This document shows, one piece after another, positions 3,536 through 60,512 of a DNA stretch of 64,000 nt (position 1 is its first letter; each line of letters starts with the position of its first letter). The DNA comes from an uncultured Caldilineales bacterium (GTDB lineage Bacteria > Chloroflexota > Anaerolineae > JAAEKA01): positions 35,447-99,446 of the forward strand of contig CALESQ010000120.1 in NCBI GenBank assembly GCA_937907455.1, read 5' to 3'. The translations under genes were made by a program, and so were the position numbers. The notes under the pieces were generated by a model. It had not been told where the DNA came from. It did not search any database and worked only from the letters and a program-made list of their open reading frames with translations.

Positions 3536-4303
3536 TTACTGTTTACCGTCTGCCGCGCCGCGCAGCACGGCAATGATCTCGGCCATGATGGCAACGGCGA
3601 TCTCGGCGGGTGTGTGTGCGGCGATGTCGAGGCCGATGGGCGCGTGGACGCGGGTGAATTTCGTCGCAGGGATGCCCTGCCCGCGGCTGAGCAGATCGAA
3701 CACGGTGCGTATACGGCGCTTGCTGCCGATCATGCCGATGTAGGCCAGTGGCGTGTCCAGCACTTCCAACAGACATTCGACGTCGTGCTGATGGCCGCGG
3801 GTAACGAGTACGAGATAGCTGTCGGTATCCAGGCGGCCCGCAGCCACCCAGTCGCGCATGGTTTCGCGCAGCGGCGTAGCCAGCACGTTGTCAGCCTGCG
3901 GGAAACGTTGACGATTGGCGTATTGTGGGCGGTCGTCCAGCACGGTGATGGTGAAATCGCACAGCTTGCCGAGCTGCGCCAGCGGCACGGCGATGTGTCC
4001 GGCTCCGACGATGATCAATTCGGGTGGACGATGCTGTACCTCAACGAAAACCTTCACCTGGCCGGTGGGTGTGGGGTAGGTCAGGGTTTTGTGAACCCGG
4101 CCAGCCAGCGCGCTCTGGGCATCTGCCAGCACTTGCACTTCCAAGTTGCCGAGGCCAAGCTCGCTGAGCGGCTCGGCATCCAGCCAGACCAGCGCGTGCC
4201 GACCCAGCAGAGCCGCTTCGGGCGCGGCGGTAATTGTCGCCAGCGCGACCGGACGATGCGCTTCCAGGGAGGTGATGAGGGAGGAGAGGAGAGGGGGCAT
4301 CAT
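3536..4303 (-). CDS. XdhC/CoxI family protein, C-terminal Rossmann-like domain (molybdenum hydroxylase maturation)
   Basis: IIVGAGHIAVPLAQLGKLCDFTITVLDDRP motif; ORF-track N-terminal Arg-rich extension (to 4540) judged spurious, start placed at MMPPLL (4303). Confidence 0.65.
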   Translation of the reverse strand: MMPPLLSSLITSLEAHRPVALATITAAPEAALLGRHALVWLDAEPLSELGLGNLEVQVLADAQSALAGRVHKTLTYPTPTGQVKVFVEVQHRPPELIIVGAGHIAVPLAQLGKLCDFTITVLDDRPQYANRQRFPQADNVLATPLRETMRDWVAAGRLDTDSYLVLVTRGHQHDVECLLEVLDTPLAYIGMIGSKRRIRTVFDLLSRGQGIPATKFTRVHAPIGLDIAAHTPAEIAVAIMAEIIAVLRGAADGKQ

Positions 4304-4377: not shown

Positions 4378-4698
4378 TTAAAGCTGGCCTTGCCAGCGCT
4401 CCACAAACACGTTGAAGATGCCGCCGCAGACGCCGAGGCTTTGCATGGTGGGGTCTTCGGTGAGGTCTACGCGCACGGTGGCAGGCTGGCCGGTTTGAAT
4501 GACATCCAGCGCGGCCAGGATCACATCCCCTTCGCCGCAACCGCCGCCCACCGTGCCATAGTGTTGCCCCAGCGGGTGGATGATCATTTTTGCGCCCACC
4601 TCGCGCGGCACACTGCCGCGCACCTCGGTGATGGTGGCTACGGCTACGGTTTCGCCGCTGCGCAGGTACTCATGCAGCTTGTGGTAAAAGGTGTCCAT
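4378..4698 (-). CDS. XdhC/CoxI family protein, N-terminal domain (separate ORF)
   Basis: 106 aa; TVGGGCGEGDV motif of the XdhC N-domain; immediately upstream of the C-domain ORF on the same strand. Confidence 0.6.
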   Translation of the reverse strand: MDTFYHKLHEYLRSGETVAVATITEVRGSVPREVGAKMIIHPLGQHYGTVGGGCGEGDVILAALDVIQTGQPATVRVDLTEDPTMQSLGVCGGIFNVFVERWQGQL

Positions 4699-5609: not shown

Positions 5610-6443
5610 ATGTCTGGTTTAATCATCAATGCCGACGATCTGGGCTACTCCACCCAGATTAATAAGGCTATCATGGATCTGTTTGCTGCCGGTTTGGTAA
5701 CCAGCACCAGCCTGCTTGTTAATCAACCGGCCAGCGAAGCTGGTGCTGAATTGGCGCGGCGACAGCCGCAGCTCTCCGTGGGGGTGCATCTCAACCTCAG
5801 CCTGGGCCACCCGGTGCTGGCTGCCAAGTTGGTGCCCAGCCTGGTAGACGAGCAGGGTGTTTTCTGGGATACAGCTAGCTTGTTTCGTCGTGCTTTGCTG
5901 GGGCAAGTAAACTGGCATGAGGCTGCGGCCGAGCTGGAAGCGCAGGTGCGTTGGGCACTGGTGCATGGCCTGCATCTGGATAACCTCGACTCGCATGTGC
6001 ATTTTCATTCGCTCCCTGCGGCGCGGCGTATCACCCAGCAGCTTGCCCGGCAGTATCATGTAGCCGCCTGGCGCACCCCCTATGTCCTCTCCACGGTGAT
6101 GCCTACCCGGTTGTGGAGCGATGTGCTGGCTACCCCGGTGAAACCGTTGCGTTCCGATGAACTATCCACACCTGATTACTTGATGTTGCTGGATCAATGG
6201 GGGGAACGTCTGCTGACCGATGGCCGCATAGCCAAGCTACTTGGCAAGCCCGATGTAGTAGCCGAGCTAGTGTTGCATCCGGGGTATCACAACGACCCGG
6301 AACTGCCTGCCGATGAGCAACTTGGCTCGGAGCAACGTCAGGAAGAAGTAAACCTGGTGACCGGAACCCTCTTCCAAACCTGGCTACAGGAAACCGGCGC
6401 GCGCCTGGTCAGCTTTGCCAACTTCCAGCGGATGCAGGCATAG
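5610..6443 (+). CDS. ChbG/YdjC/HpnK family carbohydrate deacetylase-like protein
   Basis: 277 aa; N-terminal LIINADDLGYSTQINKAI and HLNLSLGHP motifs typical of YdjC-like proteins. Confidence 0.65.
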   Translation: MSGLIINADDLGYSTQINKAIMDLFAAGLVTSTSLLVNQPASEAGAELARRQPQLSVGVHLNLSLGHPVLAAKLVPSLVDEQGVFWDTASLFRRALLGQVNWHEAAAELEAQVRWALVHGLHLDNLDSHVHFHSLPAARRITQQLARQYHVAAWRTPYVLSTVMPTRLWSDVLATPVKPLRSDELSTPDYLMLLDQWGERLLTDGRIAKLLGKPDVVAELVLHPGYHNDPELPADEQLGSEQRQEEVNLVTGTLFQTWLQETGARLVSFANFQRMQA

Positions 6444-6504
6444 GGCCGCTTACCGATCACTTGACCAACCTCGTCAAATCGTGTATCATGCCGCAGGCTG
6501 TTTT

Positions 6505-6600
6505 GGGGGTGGATGTGTCCCGGTGGGCGCCCCGGTCTTCAAAATCGGTGGTGGGTGCCGCACAGGCAGCCACGGTGGGTTCGACTCCCATCCACTCCCG
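6505..6600 (+). tRNA. selC: tRNA-Sec (selenocysteine tRNA, anticodon UCA)
   Basis: Hand-folded: 8-bp acceptor stem (GGGGGTGG/CCACTCCC, one GU), 6-bp D-stem with 4-nt D-loop, anticodon loop CTTCAAA (UCA), long variable arm (~25 nt with stem), T-arm GTGGG-TTCGACT-CCCAT with GGTTCGACTCC identical to E. coli selC, discriminator G; 8/5 acceptor/T architecture typical of bacterial tRNA-Sec. Coordinates +/-2. Confidence 0.75.
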
Positions 6601-6643
6601 CTCTGCAGCCCCGCTTGCCCTCTGTAATTCCGGCGAAAAGGCT

Positions 6644-7123
6644 ATGTTTGAGCAACCTCTTGAGTTTTTCCACGAAGACCAGCCGCCGCATATGCTGCGT
6701 GGTCAGGCCCTGCCCTATCCCGATCTGCAACGCGTGTGGGTGCGCGTGCAACTTGCCCCCTTTGCCGGCCACCCTGAGCTGGAGATGGTCATCCTCGACT
6801 CTGCCGCTCAGCCTGTGGCCAGCATGATCATGGTAGACGTGCAGTTTGCCTATGTTTCCCTTACCTTGCACCTGAAACAACCGCAGCCCGCTGCCCCCTA
6901 CACGCTGCTGTTGCGCCTCACCCGCGATCATACGTTGCTTGATCAGCGTGCCGTTCCCTTTGTCCTTACCTTCGTCGAGCGCGACCAGGCCAAAGCCGAG
7001 GCTGAGGGCATGATTTGGCCGGAGCGCGGGGTGCCCATTACCCCCCTCACCCCTGAAGACGATCTCTCTGAGCCGTTGCCCGAGGATATACTCGCACTCT
7101 CCTCTCTCAACGGTGCCTCTTGA
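6644..7123 (+). CDS. hypothetical protein (159 aa)
   Basis: ATG at 6644 with AAAAGG upstream; ORF-track start 6461 rejected because it overlaps tRNA-Sec; no recognisable domain. Confidence 0.45.
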   Translation: MFEQPLEFFHEDQPPHMLRGQALPYPDLQRVWVRVQLAPFAGHPELEMVILDSAAQPVASMIMVDVQFAYVSLTLHLKQPQPAAPYTLLLRLTRDHTLLDQRAVPFVLTFVERDQAKAEAEGMIWPERGVPITPLTPEDDLSEPLPEDILALSSLNGAS

Positions 7124-7229
7124 TGCAGGGCCGCTGTCCCTGAACCGCGGACTTCATTCAGTTTTATCCCCTGTTGCTGGCCTTTTCCGGCAGTGCGCCG
7201 GTCTATCTTTTATTTCGGCTCGGAGGCGT

Positions 7230-8594
7230 ATGGCAGCGATCAACTCTGCAATCAGCACTTATCTCGATTTAGCAACCCCGCAGGTTTTGGCCGATTCATG
7301 GGGGCAGTTGCAAGACGCCATGCGTAGCGACCATTTGCTGTTTGGCGAACGCTTGCTCTGTTCCGCTCTGCGTCCGCAATTTGTCACCGTGGCTGAGTGG
7401 AAAACCGCCAGCACCATGAGCACCACCCTGGTTTCCGCTTTTCACAAGGCCTATCAGGCCATGTTGAGCAGTCCGGCTTTGCGCGGGCAGGTGTGGCTCA
7501 CTCCTGAGGAAGAAACTCTGGTTGCCTGGGAGGCCGAAACGCATCTGCCTGTGCCCATTGGCCGCCTCGATTGCGCCTTGATCCACGATGCCGGTGGCGG
7601 TGACCCCGCACTGCGCCTGCTGGAGTATAATGCCGAAAGCCCCGCGGCCATTGCCTATGAAGATGGTCTGGCGCGGGCTTTTTTGCAGACGCCGTTGCTG
7701 CGTGCCTTTCAGCAGCATGTCGTCGCGCGTCCGCTTTGGGCCATGCCCGCAGCCCTGCAAACCCTGCTGCACATCTACCGCGCCTGGGGAGGGCGTACCC
7801 TGCCCACCATAGCTATCGTAGATTGGCAAGGTTTGCCCACCCAGCACGAGTTTTTGCTCTTCCAGGCCTATTTTGCCCGTCACGGCATTCGCGCTCTTAT
7901 TGTTGATCCAGATGCGCTCAGCTATCAGGGCGGGGTATTGCGGGCCGCGGGGGAACCGGTGGATTTTGTCTACAAGCGCATTCTTACCCACGAGTTGTTG
8001 GCGCGCTATGGCTTGCAGCATCCCCTTATTGATGCCGTGCGCGAGCGTGCGGTGTGCATGATGAATCGCTTTTCCTGCAAGCTGTTGCACAAAAAGGCCA
8101 GTCTGGCTTTGCTAAGCGACGAGGACAATGCCGCTCTCTTCAACCCGGCCGAACAAGCAGCCATTGCCCGTCACATTCCTTGGACGCGGCGCATGGAAGA
8201 ACGCCATACCCAGTTTGCCGGTGAGGAAATTGACCTGTTGCCCTTTGTGTTGGCTAATCGGCAGCGCCTTGTGCTCAAACCCAACGACGAGTACGGCGGC
8301 AAGGGCGTGGTGCTGGGCTGGGATGTAGAAGATGCCCAATGGCAGCAGGCTGTGGCCGATGCACTCGCTCAGCCCTCGGTGGTGCAAGAGCGAGTACCGT
8401 TGGGTAGCGAGCTGTTCCCCGTAGTCCTGCCAGATGGCAGCTTCGATATTCAGCCCCGCCTGGTAGATTTTGACCCCTTCATCTTTGACAACACCTATGC
8501 CGGCGGTTGTCTCACCCGGCTTTCTGCCGGTGGCCTGCTTAACGTGACTGCCGGGGGCGGTACCACCGTGCCCACCATGGTTGTGGCAGCGTAA
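7230..8594 (+). CDS. circularly permuted ATP-grasp superfamily protein (type-2 CP-ATP-grasp / glutathionylspermidine-synthetase-like amidoligase)
   Basis: 455 aa from ATG 7230 (GGAGG RBS); the ATP-grasp lysine/glycine-rich loop LKPNDEYGGKGVVLGWD sits near the C-terminus instead of mid-protein, as in circularly permuted ATP-grasp families. Confidence 0.5.
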   Translation: MAAINSAISTYLDLATPQVLADSWGQLQDAMRSDHLLFGERLLCSALRPQFVTVAEWKTASTMSTTLVSAFHKAYQAMLSSPALRGQVWLTPEEETLVAWEAETHLPVPIGRLDCALIHDAGGGDPALRLLEYNAESPAAIAYEDGLARAFLQTPLLRAFQQHVVARPLWAMPAALQTLLHIYRAWGGRTLPTIAIVDWQGLPTQHEFLLFQAYFARHGIRALIVDPDALSYQGGVLRAAGEPVDFVYKRILTHELLARYGLQHPLIDAVRERAVCMMNRFSCKLLHKKASLALLSDEDNAALFNPAEQAAIARHIPWTRRMEERHTQFAGEEIDLLPFVLANRQRLVLKPNDEYGGKGVVLGWDVEDAQWQQAVADALAQPSVVQERVPLGSELFPVVLPDGSFDIQPRLVDFDPFIFDNTYAGGCLTRLSAGGLLNVTAGGGTTVPTMVVAA

Positions 8595-8813
8595 TCGTAA
8601 GCCATCACTGTTTTCTTGGAGACTGTTTAAAAAGCCTTAATCAGTGGTTTCGATACGCTGTTTTGACTGAAACACCGCGTCGGTTGCGGGCGTTATACTC
8701 AAAAACACGCCGGTTGGACGGGCTAACCCGCTACTCAACCACCTTGTTCACTGTGAAATACCGTTTTAAGCAGCTTCTTACTCCTTACTCTTTTTGATCC
8801 CCCAGGAGCCGCC

Positions 8814-9956
8814 ATGTCTACCCCGCCCAGCCTGCGCCTCGGCATCGAGGAAGAATACCAGATTGTTGACCCCGAAACGCGCACCCTGCGCTACATCATC
8901 ACGCGCACGCCCAGAGACGAGCGACCCGTGTTGCGCGGGACTGAGGGCGATACCCCCCTCGAACCGCCCCTGGCCAAGCTGATGGCTGACCTTGCCAAGC
9001 CCGTCTTCAATAGCGCCGCTGAGCTGGGTGAGGCGCTGATCGAACAGCGCCGCGCGGTGTGCCAGATGGCCAGCGACCGTGGCCTGTGGGTTGCCGCCGC
9101 CGGTACACATCCCTTTGCCGCCTGGTCGCAAACCAGCACCCCGTTGCATGGTCGCTATGAGGGTCTCACCGAAGAAATGCGTGCCGTAGCCAAGCGCCTG
9201 TTGATCTTTGGTGCCCACATCCATGTGGCTATCGAAGACCCCGGCATGGCGATTGATTGCATGAACACCGTGCGCTACATGCTGCCGCACCTGCTTTGCC
9301 TCTCCACCAGCTCGCCCTTTTTCGCCGGACATGACACCGGCCTTAAATCATACCGGGCGATTTTGCACGAAAACCTGCCGCGCAGCGGCGTCCCGCACGA
9401 ATTCGCCTCGCCCGATGAATACAAGCACTACGTAGAGTTGCTCATCAAAACGCACTGTATCCGCGGCGAAAACGATATTTGGTGGGATGTGCGTCCGCAT
9501 CGTCAGCCTTCGTCGCTGGAGTTTCGTTTGTTTGACATGATGCCCGCAGTAGAGGACACCATCGGTCTGGTGGCCGCCGTGCAGGCGGTGGTAGCCTGGC
9601 TTACCGATCTGCGCGGCCACAACATCAGCTTCCGCCTCTACCCGCGCAGCCTGATCGAAGAGAACAAATGGCGCGCCGAACGCTATGGCCTGGACGGCAA
9701 GCTGATTGATTTCGGCAAAGAGCAGCAGTTGCCCGCGCGTACCCTGGTGCGTGAGCTGTTGCGCCTGGCCGATCCCTATGTCGAGCGGCTTGGTTCGCGC
9801 CGCCAGATAGACCACCTCTACCAGGTGATCGAGCGCGGCACCAGCGCCGACCGCCAACGCCGTGTCTATCAGCAAAATGGTGGTAAGAAAAACCACAACG
9901 CTGCATTGATCGCCGTGGTTGATGCACTCGTCGCCGAAACCATGATCTGCCGCTAG
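8814..9956 (+). CDS. carboxylate-amine ligase, YbdK / glutamate-cysteine ligase family 2 (GCS2), paralog 1
   Basis: 380 aa; [18 protein letters not shown]-terminus and overall YbdK-like layout. Confidence 0.8.
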   Translation: MSTPPSLRLGIEEEYQIVDPETRTLRYIITRTPRDERPVLRGTEGDTPLEPPLAKLMADLAKPVFNSAAELGEALIEQRRAVCQMASDRGLWVAAAGTHPFAAWSQTSTPLHGRYEGLTEEMRAVAKRLLIFGAHIHVAIEDPGMAIDCMNTVRYMLPHLLCLSTSSPFFAGHDTGLKSYRAILHENLPRSGVPHEFASPDEYKHYVELLIKTHCIRGENDIWWDVRPHRQPSSLEFRLFDMMPAVEDTIGLVAAVQAVVAWLTDLRGHNISFRLYPRSLIEENKWRAERYGLDGKLIDFGKEQQLPARTLVRELLRLADPYVERLGSRRQIDHLYQVIERGTSADRQRRVYQQNGGKKNHNAALIAVVDALVAETMICR

Positions 9957-9998
9957 CGATGCAGCATGGCGAATTGAAACCCCTGCGAGAACACATCC

Positions 9999-11147
9999 AT
10001 GATAACCCGTCCCTCCCTCACTGTTGGCATCGAAGAAGAATATCAGATCATTGAGCCCGGCACGCGCGAGTTAAAATCCTTCATCACCCAGTTTATGGAA
10101 TCCAAAGAGGGCGCGATGGAGATAAAAAAGGGCGAGTTGAAAGCTGGTGTCAAGCCAGAACTGCACGCCTCGATGGTCGAGCTGGGCACCCCGGTCTGCG
10201 CCAACGTAGCCGAGCTGAAAAGCGCACTCTTCGCCCAGCGCAATTCTATTTTTGAGCTGGCCGCGCAGCGCGGGCTGCAGATCGCCGCCGCCTCTACCCA
10301 TCCCTTCTCGCATTGGCTGGGACAAGAGATTTCTCCCTATGAGCGCTACGCCAAGACCGTGGAAGATCACCAGATGATCGCCCAGCGCATGTTGATCTTT
10401 GGCATGCACGTACACGTCGGTGTGGAAGACCGCGACTTTGCCATTGATTGCATGGATACCGTGCGCTACATGCTGCCGCACATCCTGGCCCTCACCACCA
10501 GCTCTCCCTTCTGGGCCGGTCGTCAAACCGGTCTGAAGTCCTATCGCTCCGTGGTGTTCGAGGATTTACCCCGCACCGGCCTGCCGGAAAGTTTTTCTTC
10601 ATGGGCGCACTTCGATCGTTTTGTGCAGCGCCTGGTTAACACCGGCTGCATCGCTGATGGTTCCAAGATCTGGTGGGATGTGCGCCCCCACTATGCCTTC
10701 CCTACACTGGAATTCCGCGTGCCCGACATCTGCACCCGCGCTGAAGAGGCCGTAGCAGTGGCTGCGCTGCTGCAAGCCATCGTCGCCTGGCTGTGGGAGC
10801 TGCGTCGCCGCAACATGACCTTCCGCAGTTATCGCCGTGATTTTATTGCCGAAAACAAGCGCCGCGCCCTGCGCAACGGTCTCGATGGCATGATGATTGA
10901 CTTCGGCAAAGAAATCGAAGTACCCACCCGCCAACTGGTGCGTGAACTGTTGCTGCTGGTAGACGAGCAGATTGACGAGTTGGGCAGCCGTGACGAAGTT
11001 GAAGTGATCTACCGCATTTTGGAGGACGGCACCAGCGCCGACCGACAGGTCAAGGTGTACCAGGAGCATGGCGGTGATGCCAATCGCGCCGAAGCTCTGC
11101 GCGCCGTGGTAGATCACCTGGTGCAGGAAACCGCTGAAGGGATTTAA
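9999..11147 (+). CDS. carboxylate-amine ligase, YbdK / GCS2 family, paralog 2
   Basis: 382 aa; [17 protein letters not shown]; roughly 50% identical to the upstream paralog (tandem duplication). Confidence 0.8.
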
Positions 11148-11148
11148 T

Positions 11149-12339
11149 GTGCCTGTTTTAGCACTGCGTCGCACTGCTGTTGCGGTGTTGATTTTCTGCC
11201 TGGCTGCGCTGGCACTGCTGGGGATGCCGGTGCTGGCGCGTCCGTTGCCCTCAGCACCACCCCTTGCCTTTTGCCCCGACTACGACGGCAACGGTCAGGT
11301 AGACGCCGCCGACATTACCCGCATTGCCGCATTGTGGGGTGGTTCCGCGCCCGATCCCCGGTTTGATTTCGATGATGACCCCACGGTGACAGTGAGCGAT
11401 GTCATGGCGGTGGCGGCGCGCTTCGGCTCTGCCTGCGCCGCCGGCAGCGGCTGTCTGTTCTTTCCACCCGATAACATCTGGAACGCCCGCGTTGATGCGC
11501 TCCCTGCCGATGCCAACTCGGCGGCCTACGTGCAGGCCATTGGTACGGCCGCCGGGCTGCATCCTGACTTTGGCGCCGGTTTGTGGGATGGCGGCCCTAT
11601 TGGCATTCCTTTCGTTGTCGTGCCCACCGTTCAACCGCCTGTGGCTGTGGCCTTCGACTACGCCGACGAGAGCGACCCCGGCCCTTATCCCATTCCCACC
11701 GCTGCGCCCATCGAGGGTGGCCCAGACAGCGATGGTGACCGCCATGTGCTGGTGTTGCGCAACGGCGATTGTCGCCTGTTCGAGACCTATTATGCTTGGC
11801 CCACACCTGATGGCAGTTGGTACGGCGGTTCGGGTGCAGTGTTTGATCTCAATGCACACGCCCTGCGTCCAGCAGGCTGGACTTCAGCCGATGCCGCCGG
11901 TCTGCCCATTCTGTCGGGGCTGGTGCGCTACGACGAGATAGCCAGCGGACGAATTGAGCATGCCCTGCGCTTCACCGCTCCGCGCACCCGTCGGGCCTAT
12001 GTCTGGCCCGCACGTCATTATGCTTCCAGCCTCACCGACCCCGCCCTGCCGCCCATGGGACAGCGCTTCCGCCTGCGCGCCGACTTCGATGTGTCCGGTT
12101 TTTCATCGGTCAACCGCGTGATTTTGACAGCACTCAAAGAATATGGAATGATGCTGGCTGACAATGGCTCCGCCTGGTATCTTTCAGGCGTGCCCGACGA
12201 ACGCTGGGACAACGCCGATCTGCATCAATTGCAGACCGGCGTCCACGGCTCGGATTTCGAGGCTGTAGATGTTTCCGGCTTGCTGCTGCACCCCGACTCG
12301 GGTCAGGTCAGGCCGACCTCTGCGCCATCATCACCCTGA
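11149..12339 (+). CDS. secreted protein with N-terminal signal peptide and dockerin-like calcium-binding repeats
   Basis: GTG start; hydrophobic signal; DYDGNGQVDAADITRIAALWG and DFDDDPTVTVSDVMAVAARFG dockerin type-I-like repeat pair; rest of protein without recognisable family. Confidence 0.5.
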   Translation: MPVLALRRTAVAVLIFCLAALALLGMPVLARPLPSAPPLAFCPDYDGNGQVDAADITRIAALWGGSAPDPRFDFDDDPTVTVSDVMAVAARFGSACAAGSGCLFFPPDNIWNARVDALPADANSAAYVQAIGTAAGLHPDFGAGLWDGGPIGIPFVVVPTVQPPVAVAFDYADESDPGPYPIPTAAPIEGGPDSDGDRHVLVLRNGDCRLFETYYAWPTPDGSWYGGSGAVFDLNAHALRPAGWTSADAAGLPILSGLVRYDEIASGRIEHALRFTAPRTRRAYVWPARHYASSLTDPALPPMGQRFRLRADFDVSGFSSVNRVILTALKEYGMMLADNGSAWYLSGVPDERWDNADLHQLQTGVHGSDFEAVDVSGLLLHPDSGQVRPTSAPSSP

Positions 12340-15426: not shown

Positions 15427-16185
15427 ATGTTGATCTTTCCTGCCATTGATTTACGTCGCGGGCGTTGCGTGCGTCTACGCCAGGGCGACCCCACCGCTGA
15501 AACTGTGTTCGGCGATGATCCCGCGGCTATGGCACGCCATTGGGCTGCCCAGGGAGCCCAATGGCTGCATGTGGTCAATCTGGATGGCGCGTTGGGCGAT
15601 CAGGCTGCCGATGCCCCGAATCTGCGCTGCCTGGCGGCTATCCGTGCCGTGATTGATCTGCCCATTCAGTTCGGCGGCGGGCTGCGCACGCTGGATGATG
15701 TGGCCCTTGCTCTGCGTTTGGGGGCCACGCGTGTGGTGCTGGGCACAGCATTGCTGCAAGATTCTGCATTGGCCGCCACCGCAGTGCGGCGTTTCGGCAG
15801 CGAGGCGATTGTGGCCGGTCTGGATGCACGCGGCGGTTATGTAGCTACTCATGGCTGGCAGTCTGCCAGCACTGTAACTGTTTTGGAGTTGGCTCGTCAC
15901 CTGGCTGCGGCCGGTGTGCTGCGCGCGGTTTACACCGATATTGCCCGTGATGGCATGTTGAGCGGTGTGGATGTCGCGGGCAGTGTGGCATTGGCCGAAC
16001 ACAGTGGCCTGGCTGTGATTGCCAGCGGCGGCGTGCGCGATCTGGATGATATCCGCGCACTGCTGGCAGTGACTGCCCGCGGCGTTGAAGGTGTTATTGC
16101 TGGTCAGGCTCTTTACACTGGTTCGCTGGATCTGCGTAGTGCTGTGGCACTGGCAGACGCGCAGACAATGGAATTGTCTGGCTGA
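15427..16185 (+). CDS. hisA: ProFAR isomerase
   Basis: [21 protein letters not shown] canonical HisA N-terminus. Confidence 0.85.
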
Positions 16186-16278
16186 CAGCACGAAGCGCCT
16201 TTGGGCGTTGCGGAAACAGGCCCTGAGGGGCCTTTGTATGATGAGGCGGCGAATTCCATTCGCTGCGTATCGTTCATT

Positions 16279-17034
16279 ATGCTTGCTAAACGCATCATCC
16301 CCTGTCTCGATGTCAAAGATGGCCGCGTGGTCAAAGGCGTCAGTTTCGTTGACCTGCGCGATGCCGGCGATCCGGTAGAGCAGGCGCGCATCTATGACGG
16401 TGAGGGCGCCGATGAGTTGGTGTTTCTTGACATAACAGCCAGCCACGAACGCCGTGAAATTACGTTGGAGATGGTTGAGGCCGTGGCGCGTACGGTGTTT
16501 ATTCCTTTCACTGTGGGCGGCGGCATTCGCACCGTGGCTGATATGCGCGGCCTGTTGCTGGCCGGGGCCGACAAGGTAAGTATCAATTCCGCCGCAGTAC
16601 ACAACCCCCGGCTCATTGCCGAGGGTGCGCAGCAGTTCGGCAGCCAGTGCGTGGTGGTCGCCATTGATGCCAAACGTCACGGCGACGGTTGGCAGGTTTA
16701 TATCAACGGCGGGCGCACTGCCACCGGGCTGGATGCGCTCACCTGGGCCGAGCAAGTGACAACGCTGGGCGCGGGCGAAATCCTGCTTACCAGTATGGAT
16801 GCCGATGGCACACAGGCCGGGTACGATGTGGCACTCACTCGCGCGGTGGCCGGGCGCGTATCAGTGCCGGTGATTGCCTCTGGCGGAGCGGGATCGCTGG
16901 CCCATTTTCATGCTGCCTTTGCCGAGGGTCATGCCGATGCCGCCCTGGCTGCCTCGCTGTTTCACTTTCGCCAGCTCAGCATTGGCGAGGTGAAACGCTA
17001 TCTGGCCGGTCAGGAAATACCGGTAAGACTTTAG
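16279..17034 (+). CDS. hisF: imidazole glycerol phosphate synthase cyclase subunit
   Basis: [20 protein letters not shown] canonical HisF; ORF-track start 16201 trimmed. Confidence 0.85.
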
Positions 17035-19336: not shown

Positions 19337-20614
19337 ATGCCAGTCACAGCAGTCGTCGGTGCTCAATGGGGCGATGAGGGCAAAGGGCGTGTCATTGATT
19401 TTCTGGCCGAAAACGCCGATGTGGTCATCCGCTTTCAGGGAGGCGACAATGCCGGCCATACGGTGGTCAACCACCTGGGCACGTTTCGCCTCCACTTGAT
19501 TCCCTCCGGTATTTTTTACTCCAACACGCACAACATCATTGGCGCGGGGCCGGTGGTGAATCCCGACAGCCTGTTGCGCGAGATGGCCGAGCTGACAGCC
19601 GCGGGTGTGGATTTGAGCAATCTATGGCTTTCAGATCGCGCCCACATTGTCATGCCCTACCATGTGCAGCTAGATGGCTTGCAAGAGGCGGCACGCGGCG
19701 GTGCAGCCATCGGCACCACCAAGCGCGGCATTGGTCCGGCCTACAGCGACAAGGCCGCGCGCTGGGGGCTGCGCCTGGGCGACCTGCTTCATCCCGATTG
19801 GCTGCAGGCACGACTGGAGCAGATCATCCCGCGCAAAAACGCTGATCTTGAGCGTTTTGGTGCGCCACCGCTGACAACAGAGGCGTTGTACGCGCAGTGC
19901 CTGGAGTGGGCAGCGCAGCTTGGTCCGCGCATTATCAACGTGTTGCCGCTGATACGTGCCGCGGTAGAGGCCGATCAGGCCGTGTTGCTGGAGGGCCAAC
20001 TGGGCGTGATGCGTGACCTGGATTGGGGCATTTACCCCTACGTCACGTCATCCAACCCCACCGCAGCCTTTGCCGCGGCGGGTGCAGGCATCCCTCCCGG
20101 CAAGATCAGCCGTGTAGTGGGAGTGGTCAAGGCCTACTCCACCTGTGTGGGTGCCGGGCCTTTTCCGGTGGAATTGCTGGATGAAGAGGGCGGGCGGCTG
20201 CGCCGGCTGGGTCACGAATATGGTGCTACTACCGGACGCCCGCGCCGCGTGGGCTGGTTTGACGGTGTGGCTATCAGCTATGCCGTATGGCTTAACGGCA
20301 TGACCGATCTGGCCGTTACCAAGCTGGATGTGCTTGATACGCTGCCGGAGCTGAAGATTTGCACCGGGTACCTTCTGGGCAAAGAGCGGCTCAGCCACGT
20401 TCCTGAGACTGCCGTGCTGGAGCAGGTGACGCCATGCTACGAGACATGGCCCGGCTGGCTGCAACCTACCACGGCTTGCCGCTCATGGGATGATTTGCCT
20501 ATGGCTGCCCAGCGCTATCTGCGGCGCATTGAAGAACTTGCCGGCGCTCCGCTGACGTGGGTTTCTGTAGGTGCAGAACGTGAGGCGATGTTTCGGGTAA
20601 TGAATAAGGCGTGA
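19337..20614 (+). CDS. purA: adenylosuccinate synthetase
   Basis: [24 protein letters not shown] motifs. Confidence 0.9.
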
Positions 20615-20690
20615 TTGGTTTCGGTACGGGCGGCAGACTTGAGTCGTGCAGGTTGTCGCCTCACGCCGTCCTACTCAACCAGCGGAACGC

Positions 20691-20763
20691 TCATTCCCAA
20701 TTCTCAACTCTCAATTCTCCCTTCTCAACTCTCAATTCCCAATTCCCAATTTTCAACTCCCAT
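20691..20763 (+). repeat. 73-nt G-less heptamer-repeat tract (YTCYCAA x8) forming the entire purA-purB spacer up to the purB ATG
   Basis: direct reading; zero G on the sense strand; no Shine-Dalgarno. Confidence 0.8.
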
Positions 20764-22156
20764 GTTCGCCCACGACACCTATCTTTCCCCCCTCACCTGG
20801 CGTTACGGCTCGGAGACGATGCGCGCCCTGTGGTCAGAACAGCACAAACGCCTTCTGTTAAGGCGCTTTTGGGTTGCTTTGGCAACTGCACAGCATGAGG
20901 CCGGCCTGGTCAGCGCGGCGCAGCTTGCCGATTTGCAGGCGCACGAGCAAGCAGTAGATTTGGCCCGCGCTGCCGAGATCGAGGCTGAGATCCGCCATGA
21001 CCTGATGGCTGAAATTCGCACCTACGCCGAGCAATGTACGGTGGGTGGTGGCATCATCCACCTGGGGGCCACCAGCACTGATGCGCTGGACAATGTGGAA
21101 GTGCTGCGGGTGGCCGAGGCGTTGGATCTGTTGCTGGCGACGTTGGCGCAGTTTTTGCGCGTAGTCAAAGAGCAGGTTGAGCGGTATGCCCAACTCACCT
21201 GCATGGCTTTCACCCATTTGCAGCCCGCCGAGCCGACCACGGTGGGGTATCGTCTGGCCCAGTATGGCTATGACCTGCTCACCGACTGGCAAGAGTTGCA
21301 GCGGGTGCGTGCCGGTCTGCGCGCCAAGGGATTGCGCGGGGCAGTGGGGACATCGGCTTCGTATACCCAACTGTTGGAAGACACCGGCTGGAGCGCCGAG
21401 CGGCTGGAAGCGCGCCTGCTGGCGCAACTCGGCTTGGCTGCGCACCCGGTGGGCACGCAGGTGTACCCGCGCAAACAAGATTGGTTGGTACTCAACGCGC
21501 TGGCCGGAGTCGCCCAATCCGTCTATCGCTTGGCCTATGATGTGCGGCTGTTACAAAGCCCTCCCATCGGTGAATGGAGCGAACCGTTCGGCGCGCAGCA
21601 GGTGGGCAGCAGTGCCATGCCTTTCAAGCGTAACCCCGTGGATGCGGAAAACCTCGACAGCCTGGCGCGGCAGCTCGCGGCATTACCCCGTATTACCTGG
21701 GACAACGCCGCCCACAGCCACTTGGAGCGCACACTGGACGACTCAGCCAACCGGCGTATGGTGCTGCCTGAGGCATTTTTGTTGGCTGATGAGCTGCTCC
21801 ACCGCGCCACGCGCCTGATGCAAGGGTTGGTGGTGCGCGAGGATGTAGTGGCCCGCCATGTTGCTCTCTATGGTGTGTTTGCTGCCACGGAACGCCTGCT
21901 GATGGAAGCCGTAAAGGCCGGTGGCGACCGGCAAGTGCTGCATGACATTCTGCGCGGCCACAGCCTGGCCGCCTGGGAAGCTGTGCGTCAGGGGTTGCCT
22001 AATCCATTGGCAGCAGGTTTGCGAGCCGATCCGCGGCTGACGCAGTGGCTGTTGCCCGGCGAAATCGCTTCGTTGCTGGATGCCGGTGATTATGTAGGCG
22101 ATGCACCGCAGCGCGCCCGCGCCCTGGCTCAAAACATCGCCGTTACCATCGCATGA
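20762..22156 (+). CDS. purB: adenylosuccinate lyase
   Basis: start at MFAHDTYLSPLTWRYGSETMRALWSE; ORF-track N-terminal extension (20615) is translation of the repeat tract and rejected. Confidence 0.85.
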   Translation: MFAHDTYLSPLTWRYGSETMRALWSEQHKRLLLRRFWVALATAQHEAGLVSAAQLADLQAHEQAVDLARAAEIEAEIRHDLMAEIRTYAEQCTVGGGIIHLGATSTDALDNVEVLRVAEALDLLLATLAQFLRVVKEQVERYAQLTCMAFTHLQPAEPTTVGYRLAQYGYDLLTDWQELQRVRAGLRAKGLRGAVGTSASYTQLLEDTGWSAERLEARLLAQLGLAAHPVGTQVYPRKQDWLVLNALAGVAQSVYRLAYDVRLLQSPPIGEWSEPFGAQQVGSSAMPFKRNPVDAENLDSLARQLAALPRITWDNAAHSHLERTLDDSANRRMVLPEAFLLADELLHRATRLMQGLVVREDVVARHVALYGVFAATERLLMEAVKAGGDRQVLHDILRGHSLAAWEAVRQGLPNPLAAGLRADPRLTQWLLPGEIASLLDAGDYVGDAPQRARALAQNIAVTIA

Positions 22157-31437: not shown

Positions 31438-31648
31438 AGTACACAAGTAGACAAGGAAGAAGTACACAAGCAGACAAGGAAGAAGTACACAAGTAGACAA
31501 GGAAAAAGTACACAGGCAGATGTAGATAAGGAAGAAGTACAGAATACATAAAAATTCCCAGTCACCTGTGTACTTGTTTACCTGTCTACCTGTCTACCTG
31601 TATACTTGTTTACCTGTCTACCTGTCTACCTGTGTACTTGTCTACTTT
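31438..31648. repeat. paired inverted repeat arrays between ilvC and leuA: purine-type 23-nt units (GTACACAAGTAGACAAGGAAGAA x4) then pyrimidine-type octamers (CTACCTGT / CTACTTGT x~10)
   Basis: direct reading; arrays are partially complementary (e.g. GTACACAGG / CCTGTGTAC). Confidence 0.75.
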
Positions 31649-31664
31649 CCCGAAGGAGCCCTCC

Positions 31665-33308
31665 ATGCCCTCACAACCTGATCGCGATGTGATCCTGATT
31701 TTCGATACCACCCTGCGTGACGGCGAGCAGTCCCCGGGTGCTACGCTGACCACGCAGGAGAAACTGGAAATAGCCCGGCAGCTTGCCCGCCTCGGCGTGG
31801 ATATCATCGAAGCCGGTTTCCCGGCGGCCTCGCCTGGCGATCTTGAGGCTGTGCACCAGATCGCCGCGACCATCGGCTGTGAGCAACGCCTGGACAAGTT
31901 CGGCAATCCCGCTGCGCCGCCGGTGATTGCTGGTCTGGCCCGCGCTAACCATAACGACATCAACGCGGCCTGGCAGGCAGTGCAGGCCGCGCAGCGCCCG
32001 CGCATTCATACCTTCCTCGCCACATCGCCCATTCACATGGAGCACAAGCTGAAGATGACACCGGAACAGGTGGTGGAGCGCGTGCGTGAGATGGTGGGTT
32101 ATGCCCGCAGCCTGTGCCCCGACGTGGAGTTTAGCCCGGAGGATGCCGGGCGCAGCGACCCTCGCTTCCTGTATCAAGTGCTGGCCGTAGCCATTGAGGC
32201 CGGTGCTACCACGCTTAACATCCCCGACACAGTGGGCTACACTGTGCCCGCAGAGTATGGCAAGCTGATCCGCGATATCCGCGAAAACACTCCGGGAGCC
32301 CAAAACGTTGTCATCTCCTGCCACTGTCACAACGACCTGGGACTGGCGACAGCCAACACCCTGGCCGGCATCGAAAACGGCGCCCGCCAGGTAGAGGTGA
32401 CGGTGAACGGCATCGGTGAGCGTGCCGGCAACACCAGCTTGGAAGAGATCACCATGGCGCTTTACACCCGCCATCAGGTCTACGAAACCGACACCAACAT
32501 TGTCACCCATGAGATTCATCGCAGCAGCGACATGGTCAGCCGCTACACCGGCATGGTGGTACAGCCCAACAAGGCCATTGTCGGCGCCAATGCCTTCGCG
32601 CACGAGGCCGGCATCCATCAGGACGGCATGTTGAAGCACAAGCGCACCTACGAGATCATGGACGCGGGCACTATCGGCCTGAACCAAAGCAAACTGGTGT
32701 TGGGCAAGCATTCCGGTCGCCACGCCTTCCGTCTGCAACTGGAGCAGATGGGCTATAAGTTGGATGACAAAGACCTGGATGAGGTGTTTCGCCGCTTCAA
32801 GGAGCTGGCCGACAAGAAAAAAGTAGTTACCGACGGCGATCTGCAAGCCCTGGTAGGTGATGAACTCTACAAGCCGCCGGAGACCTGGCAGGTAGAGGAC
32901 GTGCAAGTGAGCTGCGGCACCACGGTGATCCCCACAGCCGTGGTACGCCTGCGCTACGTTGCCACCGGCGAAATCGTCACCGACGCCGGTTTCGGCACCG
33001 GCCCGGTAGATGCGGTGTATCAGGGTATCAACCGGCTGGTAGGTGTTCCCAACCGCCTGGTCGAGTTCGTGATCCAGGCCATTGATCAGGGCATGGACGC
33101 CGTGGGTGATGTGACCATTCGCATCGAAGCTAATGAGCTGATCGGCACGGTGGAGCGTGCGCAGGGCGGCCGCGGCCAGCGCATCTTCTCCGGACGTGGC
33201 ATTGATACCGACATCGTGGTAGCCAGCGCCAAAGCCTACATGCAGGCGTTGAACAAGATGCTGGCTGCCAAAGAAGAGCGCGAGTCGGTGCTGGCTTTGG
33301 GCGTATAG
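31665..33308 (+). CDS. leuA: 2-isopropylmalate synthase (long form with C-terminal regulatory domain)
   Basis: [42 protein letters not shown]; E. coli LeuA-like C-terminal domain. Confidence 0.85.
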
Positions 33309-42154: not shown

Positions 42155-42196
42155 ACAACGATTTTTTAACACTTGCAACCCAAACAGGATTTTCTC

Positions 42197-43885
42197 ATGT
42201 CTATAGGTTCCGTGCAATCCCCCCCGATCTGGCTTTATGACACCACTCTGCGCGATGGCACGCAAGGTGAGGGCGTTAACTTTTCCTGCGAAGACAAGCT
42301 GCGCATCAGCCGCAAGCTGGACGACCTCGGCATTCACTACATCGAGGGCGGTTGGCCTGGCTCCAATCCCAAAGACATCGAATACTTCGAGCGCGCCCGT
42401 CACGAACTCAAATTGCGCACTGCGCGCGTGGTGGCTTTTGGCAGCACTGTGAAGGCGCACACCGACCCGGCTGACGATTCTCAAATGCGTCTGCTGGTAG
42501 ATGCGGCCACGCCTGTCATCTGCATTTTTGGCAAAACGTGGGATTTGCATGTGCATGAGGTGCTGCGCACTACCCTGGACGAGAATTTGCGCATGATCGG
42601 CGCCAGCGCGGCCTATCTCAAAGCGCACACCGGTGAATTTATCTACGACGCCGAGCATTTCTTCGATGGCTACAAAGCCAATCCCGATTATGCCCTGGAG
42701 ACGCTGAAGGCCGCCGCCGACAACGGCGCCGATGCGTTGGTGCTGTGTGATACCAATGGCGGCAGCTTGTATTGGGAAGTGGGTGAGATCGTCACAGCCG
42801 TGCGCGCTTCGCTGGAGCGCATGGGCTATCGCGGGGTATTGGGGATTCACACCCATAACGATGGCGATGTCGGCGTGGCGAACGCGTTGGAGGCGATCCG
42901 CCGCGGAGCCACCCACGTTCAGGGTACTATCAACGGCTACGGCGAACGCTGCGGCAACAGCAACTTAAACAGCATCATCGCCAATCTTAAATTGAAGATG
43001 GGGCTGGATGCTATCAGCGAGCAGCAATTGGCGCACCTGCACGAGACCGCCCATTTTGTGGCTGAGTTGGCTAACCTGCAACTACCCTCGCACATGGCTT
43101 TTGTAGGACGTTCTGCTTTCGCTCATAAGGGCGGCACGCACGTCAATGCTGTGGTAAAGTTGGAGCGCAGCTATCAGCACATCACTCCGCAGCTTGTGGG
43201 CAACCAAAAGCGTATTGTGGTCAGTGAGCTGAGCGGCAAGGATAATATTGCGGTCAAGCGCGAAGAATTTGGCCTGCATGATCTGAGCAAGGAGCAAGAG
43301 CGCGGCGTGCTGGCGCGCATCAAGGAGCTGGAGAACCACGGTTTCGCCTTTGAGGGTGCCGAAGGCTCGGTGGCCCTGCTGCTGCGCCGCTTGCAGCCCG
43401 GCTATCAGCCCCCGTTTGAGCTGTTGCGCTACAAAGTGGTCGTGGAGCACATGAACGGCAAGGCGCACAATGGCTTGGTGGGCGATCATACCAGCGCAAT
43501 GCCGACTGACATGGCCTATGATCCCTCAGCCTGGTTTGTAGAGGCCACGGTGAAGGTGAAGGTGGGCGGCCAGATCTTTCACACCGCAGCCGAGGGCAAC
43601 GGTCCTGTGAACGCATTGGACCTGGCGCTACGCAAGGCCATTTTGCAGTTCTATCCCCAATTGGTGGATGTAAATCTGGTGGACTACAAGGTGCGCATTC
43701 TGGATAGCCACGCAGCCACTGGTGCTATTGTGCGCGTGCTGATCGAATCAACCAACGGTCACGCCCGCTGGAGTACCGTGGGTGCCAGCAGCAACATCAT
43801 CGAAGCCAGTTGGCAAGCTCTGGCCGATAGCGTGGAATACGCGCTGCTGGGTATGGCCGGGGAGCAGGCGGGGAGTGACAGGTAA
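42197..43885 (+). CDS. cimA: (R)-citramalate synthase (Geobacter/Leptospira-type CimA, LeuA paralog)
   Basis: YDTTLRDGTQGEG, IHYIEGGWPGSNPKD, YDAEHFFDGYKANPDYA, TINGYGERCGN, AFAHKGGTHV, TAAEGNGPVNALD motifs characteristic of the CimA clade. Confidence 0.75.
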   Translation: MSIGSVQSPPIWLYDTTLRDGTQGEGVNFSCEDKLRISRKLDDLGIHYIEGGWPGSNPKDIEYFERARHELKLRTARVVAFGSTVKAHTDPADDSQMRLLVDAATPVICIFGKTWDLHVHEVLRTTLDENLRMIGASAAYLKAHTGEFIYDAEHFFDGYKANPDYALETLKAAADNGADALVLCDTNGGSLYWEVGEIVTAVRASLERMGYRGVLGIHTHNDGDVGVANALEAIRRGATHVQGTINGYGERCGNSNLNSIIANLKLKMGLDAISEQQLAHLHETAHFVAELANLQLPSHMAFVGRSAFAHKGGTHVNAVVKLERSYQHITPQLVGNQKRIVVSELSGKDNIAVKREEFGLHDLSKEQERGVLARIKELENHGFAFEGAEGSVALLLRRLQPGYQPPFELLRYKVVVEHMNGKAHNGLVGDHTSAMPTDMAYDPSAWFVEATVKVKVGGQIFHTAAEGNGPVNALDLALRKAILQFYPQLVDVNLVDYKVRILDSHAATGAIVRVLIESTNGHARWSTVGASSNIIEASWQALADSVEYALLGMAGEQAGSDR

Positions 43886-48600: not shown

Positions 48601-48928
48601 AGGAATAGTAGGTGCTTACGATTTCGCCGCCTTCGTAACCGCCTCCATCCAGGCCGTTGCGGGCATGGTCGGCATGCAGCCAGCGGCCATCGCCCAACGT
48701 CACGGCCTCGCCGCCACTGTTCAGGCCATAAGGCAGGCTGACGGGCGTATAGCTGGGGCGGCTGATTAGCGGCAGATAGACGCGGCAAGGCGATGTGCCG
48801 CCGCCGGTGCAGGTCGCACCTTGTGCAGCTATCGCTAGCGCGCCTGTCAGCCAGGCAGAAAGTGCCAGCAGTAGGCTGATCAAGCTGTAAAGCCCCCCGC
48901 GCACGATGCGATCAATTTGCGCGTTCAT
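45656..48928 (-). CDS. large secreted multidomain protein: CotH-like kinase domain, malectin-like and fibronectin-III-like modules, C-terminal lamin-tail domain(s)
   Basis: 1090 aa; signal peptide; NGEGYDPTLLRDKIVYDLFEALG...LNGQFLGVLTAVE CotH-like core; LITEFMADNENT...WIEVTNVSTATVNLRNYSL LTD motif. Confidence 0.5.
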   Translation of the reverse strand: MNAQIDRIVRGGLYSLISLLLALSAWLTGALAIAAQGATCTGGGTSPCRVYLPLISRPSYTPVSLPYGLNSGGEAVTLGDGRWLHADHARNGLDGGGYEGGEIVSTYYSFEPLENTEDDDVYRSARAGMAAYRFTVPNGLYLVELHMAEVRFHGPNQASFSVAIEGQPVIQNLDLYALAQHDYVVRYRFAAQVADGQLDITFSAPATQPLVSAIWIEAHRADQQAPAQPQGLEVLGGYAMALVSWDAATAADVAGYRVYRANSSAGPFLPVSDSLTPLTRYFDSAVTVGQPVCYAVMAIDVDGNSSPRSTPACATPVDHSVSTLPVLQLSLSLSNWFRLYSDPFTDNKVAADLTWQGVTYDATAQYRGRSTRASNKKGWRFEANVALPMWGSNVLLINGEGYDPTLLRDKIVYDLFEALGLQPQQAQFVHLALNGQFLGVLTAVENPDSAFLQRTGRDPLNDDVFKCDDGLDSDPNCVNQVVKGRNQQALYDFAAVVNRTAEHEFAATISDVFDVRSFLDYLALKTLIADQDFVHQYLLYHNAASKRWQMLPWDNNLSFGNSVQALDYGTAAHPSANAEINVLQTRLLAVPQYRRYYGERLQELMATLMTPQAVAARVETARQQIWFDAVRDIWKPTRENYAVMNASMMAMRTFAEQRNHFVQAALPAYMPTQSRFLSLNELMPYNSRTLPDPADRRYDPWFELVNAGLRAVDIGGTYLSDNRSEPTRFQIATGTQMAPLGTLLFWGDGQPQQGNQHTNFVLSANGGTLYWFDRDGSTLLDSITYPALSADVAWARFPDYSGQWFRFNQPTPEQSNRLLSPVISQVQQTPALPQAGDVVTVTARLADDGLISQASILYGTQGRPTTSATLYDDGLHGDGAANDGLYGGQIPAASNGTVVSYYLHVLDDYGRAGYDPFAAPVLLHRYRVGFQTSPVLITEFMADNENTIEDPDDPGEFPDWIEVTNVSTATVNLRNYSLTDNLQRPTKFRIMADILLNPGQSLLFWADDETTQGPTHTNFKLDKAGEAVGLFHPDSVTMLDSVVFPAQTGDVAYGRCPLNSDPWGYLFVPTPGWTNACGRVYLPLMAASMP

Positions 48929-60399: not shown

Positions 60400-60512
60400 C
60401 GAAGCGCGTCTGTTGTGACTTGCCAGGTCATCGGCTCCCGCTTCTGCTGCAATCTCTTCCTTGTTTGTGTTAAATTACCCCTGCCCGGATGTCTGTTCAA
60501 AGGAGCTGCACG

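Follow-up and report, generated by a model that had tools for sequence, protein, structure and literature searches.

At positions 6505-6600 of its forward strand, the window (the whole 64-kb stretch of DNA analysed here) contains a sequence that resembles a gene for selenocysteine tRNA (tRNA-Sec, selC) and that lies inside a predicted open reading frame, with no genes for selenocysteine (Sec) synthesis beside it. The locus raises the question of whether this is a genuine and intact selC, and of what its presence says about the use of selenium in the organism. A bacterial tRNA-Sec had been proposed here in an earlier note made from the letters of the sequence, and the proposal was borne out by two detection programs, by covariation and by alignment with the selC of Escherichia coli. 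The sequence at 6505-6600(+) reads GGGGGTGGATGTGTCCCGGTGGGCGCCCCGGTCTTCAAAATCGGTGGTGGGTGCCGCACAGGCAGCCACGGTGGGTTCGACTCCCATCCACTCCCG. ARAGORN, a check of the kind that the earlier note had suggested, called a tRNA-SeC with anticodon tca at 6505-6601(+), the sole tRNA of the window. The whole 64 kb was also scanned with Rfam on both strands, and the tRNA-Sec family RF01852 matched 6505-6599(+) at 71.2 bits (E=1.4e-12, model positions 1-91 of 91). This was the only Rfam family to reach its gathering threshold anywhere in the 64 kb on either strand. Within the tRNA clan tRNA-Sec was the best family, its 71.2 bits being 24 above the gathering score of 47. Because ARAGORN and Rfam agree, the observation is taken to be real, its coordinates right and its strength far beyond chance.

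Our main reading, to which we give a probability of roughly 0.93, is that 6505-6600(+) is the selC of this uncultured Caldilineales bacterium (Anaerolineae, Chloroflexota), a single-copy gene for a canonical bacterial tRNA-Sec. It is a gene of a textbook kind that standard tools call automatically, and it is already present in public assemblies and hence known. Its position was also as described in the note, between a ChbG-like gene and an amidoligase cassette: the upstream neighbour is a YdjC/ChbG-family gene at 5610-6443(+) (PF04794, E=1.2e-54), and YbdK/GCS2 ligases lie downstream. The selC gene of E. coli is the insertion site of a tRNA-borne genomic island. With up to three mismatches allowed, the 23-nt 3' end of the tRNA recurs nowhere in the 64 kb, no integrase was present among the Pfam matches of the window, and GC content was 0.56-0.65 throughout with no compositional shift, so the locus is not regarded as an island insertion site.

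Fold of the tRNA

The 96 nt, which include the discriminator base, can be assigned in full to the parts of a tRNA-Sec encoded on the forward strand. An acceptor stem of 8 bp (6505-6512 with 6592-6599) is followed by the linker AU and by a D arm at 6515-6530, in which the six pairs of GUGUCC/GGGCGC (6515-6520 with 6525-6530) close a 4-nt loop, CGGU. The anticodon arm at 6532-6548, assigned consistently by ARAGORN, Rfam and alignment, has five pairs (6532-6536 with 6544-6548) and the loop CUUCAAA, with the anticodon UCA at 6539-6541. A 23-nt extra (variable) arm at 6551-6573 has nine stacked positions and a 5-nt loop, GCACA. The T arm at 6575-6591 was placed by alignment, including that with E. 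coli selC, and has five pairs (6575-6579 with 6587-6591), of which the first is G.U, and the loop UUCGACU. The sequence ends with the discriminator G73 at 6600. All 8 + 5 pairs of the acceptor and T stems are standard in the window copy, giving the 13-bp acceptor and T branch (8/5 form) by which tRNA-Sec is defined (PMC5389517). The hallmarks listed in the earlier note thus all held, namely the 8-bp acceptor stem, the 6-bp D stem with its 4-nt loop, UCA within CTTCAAA and the long extra arm.

Support for this fold was sought in an alignment of the window tRNA with 15 other Chloroflexota/Anaerolineae tRNA-Sec genes, all of 96 nt and aligned without gaps. Across the 16 sequences, standard pairs were observed in 96.8% of the cells, as against 47-55% when the 3' partners were slid by 1-3 columns. 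Compensatory double changes were observed in 11 pairs, three in the acceptor stem (97.7% of cells paired), three in the D stem (100% paired) and five in the extra arm, compared with 0-4 in the slid controls, and values as high as those observed did not occur in any of 500 shuffles. The invariance of the anticodon and T arms is uninformative because both were fixed by the search pattern. Column 9 of the alignment (A, U or C) showed no covariation with column 87, and the fold is for this reason assigned as 8/5 and not 9/4. Thermodynamic folding alone reproduced the acceptor, D, anticodon and extra arms and missed the T arm, with an energy only modestly better than that of shuffled sequences (z=-2.5); the real evidence for the fold is the covariance model and the covariation, not thermodynamic folding.

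Two irregular positions were observed. The fifth position of the extra arm is a G.G mismatch (pair 51-65), the only non-pair among the five helices of the window copy and unpaired in 13 of the 16 sequences. The would-be sixth pair of the anticodon stem, 6531 C with 6549 U, is also mismatched and is marked as such in the NC line of the Rfam match. The six-pair anticodon stem that is a feature of E. coli is absent from all 16 Chloroflexota sequences, each of which has five pairs and a C.U or C.C mismatch. Both irregularities are shared across the lineage and do not mark the window copy as defective, and the five-pair stem is a minor variant of the lineage that does not define the family, the Rfam score being still far above threshold.

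For comparison across phyla, one genome from each GTDB species was scanned with a sequence pattern, which yielded 120 tRNA-Sec loci from many phyla. G73 was present in each of the 119 loci with a scorable discriminator position, in keeping with its reported conservation in the tRNA-Sec of all domains (PMC5330540). The three bases after 6600 are CTC, so that the 3' CCA is not encoded. A published survey found CCA encoded in 93% of bacterial tRNA-Sec genes (PMC5330540). In our scan it was encoded in 77 of the 120 loci overall and in only six of the 31 genes of the Chloroflexota type, the other 25 being without it. Its lack is thus typical of the lineage and is not a sign of decay.

A blastn search of E. 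coli genomes with the window tRNA returned no match, the overall identity being too low; the K-12 gene (b3658, tRNA-Sec(UCA)) was fetched by its coordinates and aligned directly. The two tRNAs share the 8-bp acceptor stem, the 2-nt linker, the 6-bp D stem, the 5-bp T stem and G73, and the loops CGGU, CUUCAAA and UUCGACU are identical, including the T loop, as the note had stated. The E. coli gene is likewise a stand-alone one, unlinked to selAB or selD. It differs in encoding CCA, in having G.U in place of C.U at the sixth anticodon-stem pair, in an extra arm that is 4 nt shorter than that of the window tRNA and lacks the conserved G.G mismatch of the latter, and in having no protein-coding unit some 45 nt downstream.

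Conservation of the gene and the selenium question

Copies of the locus were found in other public data. The flanking YdjC protein is identical in GCA_040275545.1 (JBEOKG010000118.1), in JGI 3300014348 (a 99.7-kb contig), in JGI 3300014349 and in an ENA assembly, and the protein encoded downstream of the tRNA (a 159-aa product, hereafter called hyp159) is identical to the NCBI entry 'ABTQ73_06615 [Caldilineales bacterium]'. The full tRNA is base-for-base identical in GCA_040275545.1 and JGI 3300014348, and its 5' half is identical in all three assemblies. The tRNA of JGI 3300014349 at first appears to be 9 nt short, but a deletion variant was rejected, because the extra arm is interrupted there by a run of N that represents a gap in the assembly.

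In the 120-locus scan the nearest tRNAs were those of Anaerolineae MAGs, with 86-90 of 97 nt identical. Caldilineales relatives, which were reached via the downstream protein, have tRNAs with 91-95 of 96 nt identical, and where these differ in the extra arm both partners of a pair have changed so that pairing is kept (GCC/GGC to ACC/GGT). ARAGORN called a tRNA-SeC in every relative tested. Taken together, the tRNA-Sec genes of Anaerolineae and other Chloroflexota (for example L152, L153, L154, L098 and L042) are identical to the window gene at 86-95 of 96-97 nt and share its fold, its G.G mismatch in the extra arm, a similar promoter and, for the most part, the lack of an encoded CCA. They differ from it by point changes only, mostly compensatory, and the flanking genes are shared within the Caldilineales; in another Anaerolineales clade an M50 peptidase and a TPR protein lie downstream of selC instead. 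The intact stems, the compensatory changes in relatives and the identical public copies argue that purifying selection acts on a working tRNA.

The partners of this tRNA were then sought around it. Pfam scans of about 55 ORFs of the window returned housekeeping genes, including his, pur, ilv, leu, gltB, rpoD, lysS, greA and sucC, and among these ORFs no member of the commonly Sec-containing families FdhA, HdrA and GrdB. SelA, SelB and SelD were not found in the 64-kb window or in about 10 kb to its left. A tblastn search of the window with the three E. coli proteins as queries gave nothing (best E=0.031); the queries were validated by matches of 40-55% identity to sel genes beside selC in loci from many other phyla. 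Over the roughly 10 kb covered, the flanks beyond the window hold an aldehyde oxidoreductase (AOR) gene, a penicillin-binding protein and an alpha-2-macroglobulin-like gene to the left and end at sucD to the right, with no sel genes on either side. A six-frame scan of the window for in-frame TGA, which misses a Sec codon lying near either end of a protein, produced no plausible selenoprotein gene. Two long same-frame TGA junctions on the coding strand of real genes, between hisA and hisF (16183) and between purA and purB (20612), were rejected as pairs of separate genes, and the remaining candidates were antisense or out-of-frame ORFs. The statement in the earlier note that neither sel genes nor an obvious selenoprotein lie nearby is therefore correct for the 64 kb and the roughly 10 kb to the left.

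The note had also hinted at a link with selenium through the molybdoenzyme-maturation genes mocA and xdhC and the nearby AOR gene, and this was not upheld. The divergent genes upstream encode a MocA-like cytidylyltransferase and an XdhC protein in two ORFs, adjoining a CoA-transferase. The best NCBIfam match of the XdhC pieces was NF045664, an XdhC-family AOR maturation factor, and the transferase matched MocA/DVU_1551 families; the NCBIfam matches of these proteins at E<=0.001 included no selenium-related family, and so neither SelD nor YqeB and YqeC, which would mark a neighbourhood of selenium-dependent molybdenum hydroxylases. The AOR gene, immediately to the left of the window, is called at full length (615 aa) and has no internal stop. 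By family, the xdhC and mocA genes match aldehyde-oxidoreductase maturation and no selenium marker, and nothing ties this group of genes to selenium.

The absence of any sel gene or selenoprotein candidate from about 74 kb around selC would fit an orphan gene, that is, a relic in which the tRNA is intact and SelA, SelB, SelD and the selenoproteins have been lost. Nor does linkage offer reassurance, as selC of the Anaerolineae type was never found beside sel genes, unlike that of many other phyla. Sel genes adjoin selC in only four Chloroflexota loci (L028, L102, L105 and L121), all from outside the Anaerolineae, and an unlinked selC is thus the rule in this class. However, many bacteria, E. 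coli among them, normally have an unlinked selC; the stems of the window gene are all intact and its G73 and promoter are kept; and the compensatory changes relative to its relatives are the pattern of a selected tRNA. SelB and Sec-containing formate dehydrogenases have moreover been described in single-cell genomes of the related Anaerolineales, and SelB in Anaerolinea thermophila (PMC4959059). Loss of the Sec machinery is on this evidence considered unlikely. We return to the reading of 6505-6600 as a working selC: given the conservation of the tRNA, the Anaerolineales data (PMC4959059) and the selenoproteins reported in Chloroflexi (PMC1794560), it is a reasonable inference that the Sec machinery and at least one selenoprotein are encoded elsewhere in the genome.

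Alternative identities and the overlapping reading frame

A different identity for the tRNA was also considered, as an allo-tRNA, a UGA-suppressing tRNA-Ser or a tRNA-Cys of the selC* type. The allo-tRNAs and (8/4) variants of tRNA-Sec described by Mukai et al. (NAR 2017) resemble the window tRNA in their long extra arm, their long D stem with a tetraloop and G73, and there are reports of (8/4) variants from Chloroflexi. These tRNAs are set apart by an acceptor and T branch of 12 bp, in the 8/4 or 9/3 form (PMC5389517), whereas that of the window tRNA has 13 bp (8/5). The anticodon is UCA and not the GCA of selC* tRNA-Cys, and among the Rfam families of the clan tRNA-Sec scored best, by the margin over threshold given above. 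The structure already disfavours such an identity, which we regard as very improbable. By contrast, the selC genes linked to selA and selB or to selD in Proteobacteria, Actinobacteria and some Chloroflexota (L105, L121 and L028) belong to the same tRNA family (PMC1794560), and their anticodon arms are identical to that of the window tRNA or differ from it by one stem base. Those arrangements differ in having sel genes near selC, which the window and all the Anaerolineae-type loci examined lack.

The reading frame in which the tRNA lies, ORF 6461-7123, begins at a TTG that is itself the start of a -35 hexamer, and its 5' portion (6461-6643, forward strand) crosses the promoter-like site and the tRNA. 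The coding sequence proper is that of hyp159 (6644-7123(+), 159 aa), which starts with the ATG at 6644, 43 nt past the tRNA. The product from 6644 is present in the gene calls of three public assemblies, NCBI and JGI calls among them, and homologues of 126-173 aa align only from this start, both in agreement with the earlier note, which had held that the protein must begin there. That the sequence is no RNA gene at all but codes for the N-terminus of a 220-aa protein and resembles a tRNA fold by chance might be argued from the frame, unbroken from the TTG at 6461 to 7123, and from an extended protein annotated in one relative, but is refuted for practical purposes, its probability being negligible, by the Rfam match (E=1.4e-12), by covariation that tracks RNA pairing, by the alignment of the homologues from residue 1 of the 6644 start, where the three gene calls also lie, and by the position of the relative's extended start within its own tRNA-SeC. 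The inclusion of the tRNA in ORF 6461-7123 is accordingly an artefact of the ORF listing, confined to the 5' end of the frame.

The extended protein just mentioned is a 207-aa entry in GCA_037045275.1 (L153) and is the sole public record with such an extension; in another relative a 55-aa antisense ORF has been called on the tRNA. ORFs from unrelated loci (L011 and L047) that overlap a tRNA cluster with the translation of 6461-6643 only because tRNA sequence has been translated in them. For annotation, ORF calls across 6461-6643 are wrong, and GCA_037045275.1 publicly carries exactly this error.

Expression of selC and the genes downstream

A promoter-like site of the sigma-70 type, TTGACC-17 nt-TATCAT, is located at 6461-6489(+) and matches the consensus at 10 of 12 positions, with TG two bases ahead of the -10 box. 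The stop codon of the YdjC/ChbG-family gene lies 17 nt before the -35 box, and the site ends 15 nt 5' of the tRNA. Two promoter-like sites were found, against 0.4 expected in shuffled sequence. In the relatives L152 and L153, CTTGACC-N17-TGTATCAT/TGTATGAT is present at an equal distance, TTGACC-18-TAxxAT lies upstream of the tRNA in L042 and L045, and a -10-like box is located a few bases 5' of most Chloroflexota tRNA-Sec genes. From these similarities we infer that 6461-6489 serves as the selC promoter.

A pathway for the tRNA can be proposed by analogy with the E. coli paradigm for the synthesis and decoding of Sec-tRNA (PMC1794560). The gene would be transcribed from its own sigma-70-type promoter at 6461-6489, and both ends of the transcript would be trimmed; since the gene does not encode CCA, a CCA-adding enzyme would then supply it. 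SerRS would charge the tRNA with serine, using the long extra arm and G73, and SelA, with selenophosphate from SelD, would convert the seryl product to Sec-tRNA-Sec. SelB would bring the latter to an in-frame UGA with a SECIS hairpin in selenoprotein mRNAs encoded elsewhere in the genome. The tRNA and the gene that follows are 43 nt apart with no predicted terminator between them, and the tRNA may for this reason be co-transcribed with the hyp159, ATP-grasp and GCS2 genes.

Five genes follow selC on the same strand: hyp159; a circularly permuted ATP-grasp, from 7113 or 7230 to 8594; two YbdK/GCS2 carboxylate-amine ligases, at 8814-9956 and 9999-11147; and a 396-aa protein of unknown kind at 11149-12339. 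The ATP-grasp and the two ligases were assigned with Pfam and NCBIfam, and hyp159 had no match in either collection. All of the 81 clusters of hyp159 homologues among the 150 candidates scored are labelled 'hypothetical'. An AlphaFold model of hyp159 (pLDDT 84.8) is a beta-sandwich of seven strands to which a C-terminal helix and a disordered tail are added, and a Foldseek search of the PDB with this model returned only generic Ig-like domains, of GH2 glycosidases. Based upon this predicted structure, hyp159 is an uncharacterised protein of the Ig-like beta-sandwich type, and the first protein gene of a conserved unit.

The order tRNA-SeC, hyp159, GCS2 on one strand was observed in the Caldilineales loci L152-L155 (hyp159 57-72% identical) and also on a metagenome contig (L131). 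It recurs in the distant loci L042, L045, L140, L144 and L147, where hyp159 is 41-50% and GCS2 62-64% identical; a further locus, L148, has tRNA-SeC and hyp159 only and is too short to show GCS2. Between the tRNA and hyp159 lie 43-55 nt in the Caldilineales; in the distant loci this gap is 71-544 nt. Across the Caldilineales and the other Anaerolineae with this order the units have one or two YbdK/GCS2 ligases, and only some of them have the permuted ATP-grasp. Upstream, the genes of the distant loci are unrelated to one another and to those of the window, with at least four unrelated contexts. Homologues of hyp159 that have no GCS2 downstream have no selC either. Only two loci of the 120 in the scan across phyla, L042 and L045, have GCS2 near selC.

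Read most simply, this arrangement would be a clade-specific operon transcribed from the promoter of selC. A bolder reading, which we consider unsupported and unlikely, is a tRNA-led operon whose amidoligases have a functional link to Sec-tRNA or to the metabolism of selenium, possible examples being a tRNA-dependent ligation or the conversion of free selenocysteine to a gamma-glutamyl conjugate for its handling; otherwise the genes would have no more than a promoter in common. A full-text search on YbdK/carboxylate-amine ligases together with selenium or selenocysteine returned no paper on such a connection among its ten top-ranked results.

As a gene, selC itself matters here for annotation only, and the sole research interest of the locus is the conserved selC-hyp159-GCS2 unit. 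Should the unit prove to be a true tRNA-led operon with a function in selenium metabolism, the poorly understood YbdK/GCS2 amidoligases would be linked to selenium biology. For the organism, the presence of selC marks this Caldilineales lineage as a likely user of selenocysteine, in which a few genes elsewhere in the genome may use UGA as a sense codon.

The tRNA-Sec gene and the genes that follow it

The selenocysteine tRNA gene (selC, 6505-6600, forward strand) stands immediately ahead of a conserved same-strand unit; the arrangement spans 6461-11147 of the window and was also found in 11 other loci (L042, L045, L131, L140, L144, L147, L148 and L152-L155). The tRNA is followed by the gene for a small, Ig-like, uncharacterised protein, here called hyp159 (159 amino acids, 6644-7123, forward strand), and then by one or two YbdK/GCS2 carboxylate-amine ligase genes, with a permuted ATP-grasp gene as an occasional extra member. 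This tRNA and its downstream unit are common to Caldilineales and to more distant Anaerolineae, while the upstream genes vary by lineage. Wherever hyp159 homologues occur without a ligase, selC is absent as well. selC, hyp159 and the ligase genes may form a tRNA-led operon. In one Caldilineales relative (L154, 9949-9985), the stretch from tRNA-Sec to the hyp159 homologue contains a perfect GC-rich hairpin (CCGGTTCCGGGAAAGC...GCTTTCCCGGAACC), and therefore co-transcription of the tRNA with its downstream genes may not be universal.

In a separate Anaerolineales clade, an M50-family peptidase gene begins 0-123 nt after selC (L013, L016, L021, L032, L036, L052, L065 and L096), and at L013, L032 and L052 a large TPR-repeat protein is also encoded, about 1.5-1.8 kb from the tRNA. 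selC therefore has a further conserved neighbour that is specific to one clade.

tRNA-Sec genes across phyla and their annotation

In the genome scan of 120 tRNA-Sec loci (L005-L124), G73 was present in all 119 loci scored. The 3' CCA was encoded in only 6 of 31 Chloroflexota-type genes, compared with 77 of 120 overall. In many phyla sel genes (selA, selB, selD) adjoin selC, as they do at four Chloroflexota loci from outside the Anaerolineae; in the Anaerolineae-type loci of the same scan, none of the three was found next to it.

The window ORF at 6461-7123 runs over tRNA-Sec, an artefact that the earlier note had spotted, placing the protein start at 6644. The same error recurs in public gene calls of Caldilineales relatives: the start codon assigned to a 207-aa "hypothetical protein" falls within the tRNA gene (L153, GCA_037045275.1, 10001-10624), and a 55-aa ORF is called antisense on top of the tRNA (L152, 9772-9939). 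In the JGI 3300014349 assembly of the same organism (L003), a run of Ns marking a scaffold gap lies at about 6050-6065, exactly at the GC-rich extra-arm hairpin. The gap looks like a 9-nt deletion in the tRNA, but it is an assembly artefact and does not represent a variant allele.

Other genes of the window

Two gene pairs, each in one forward-strand reading frame with a single intervening TGA, were returned by the mechanical scan as read-through (Sec) candidates: hisA/hisF (15427-17034, TGA at 16183) and purA/purB (19337-22156, TGA at 20612). Both were rejected; Pfam identifies separate complete genes.

The XdhC-family AOR maturation factor is encoded by two adjoining reverse-strand ORFs: one of 106 aa (4378-4698) supplies the N-terminal XdhC_CoxI part, and one of 255 aa (3536-4303) carries the Rossmann domain. 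Because relatives L153 and L154 are called with the identical split, it looks like a natural two-gene arrangement rather than a frameshift error. Its neighbours are a MocA-like transferase, a family III CoA-transferase and, immediately beyond the window's left edge, an AOR gene.

Two forward-strand LeuA/HMGL-like synthase genes (31632-33308 and 42173-43885) flank gltB and leuC-leuD-leuB. One of them probably encodes 2-isopropylmalate synthase, the other a paralogue of the citramalate or homocitrate type. The reverse strand encodes a 1090-aa protein with malectin, CotH kinase and two lamin-tail domains (45656-48928) and a small cohesin-domain protein (54285-54869); the forward strand encodes a glucose/sorbosone dehydrogenase whose C-terminus carries a dockerin motif (60489-61931). 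Taken as a set, the three proteins give this Chloroflexota genome surface modules of the cohesin-dockerin type.
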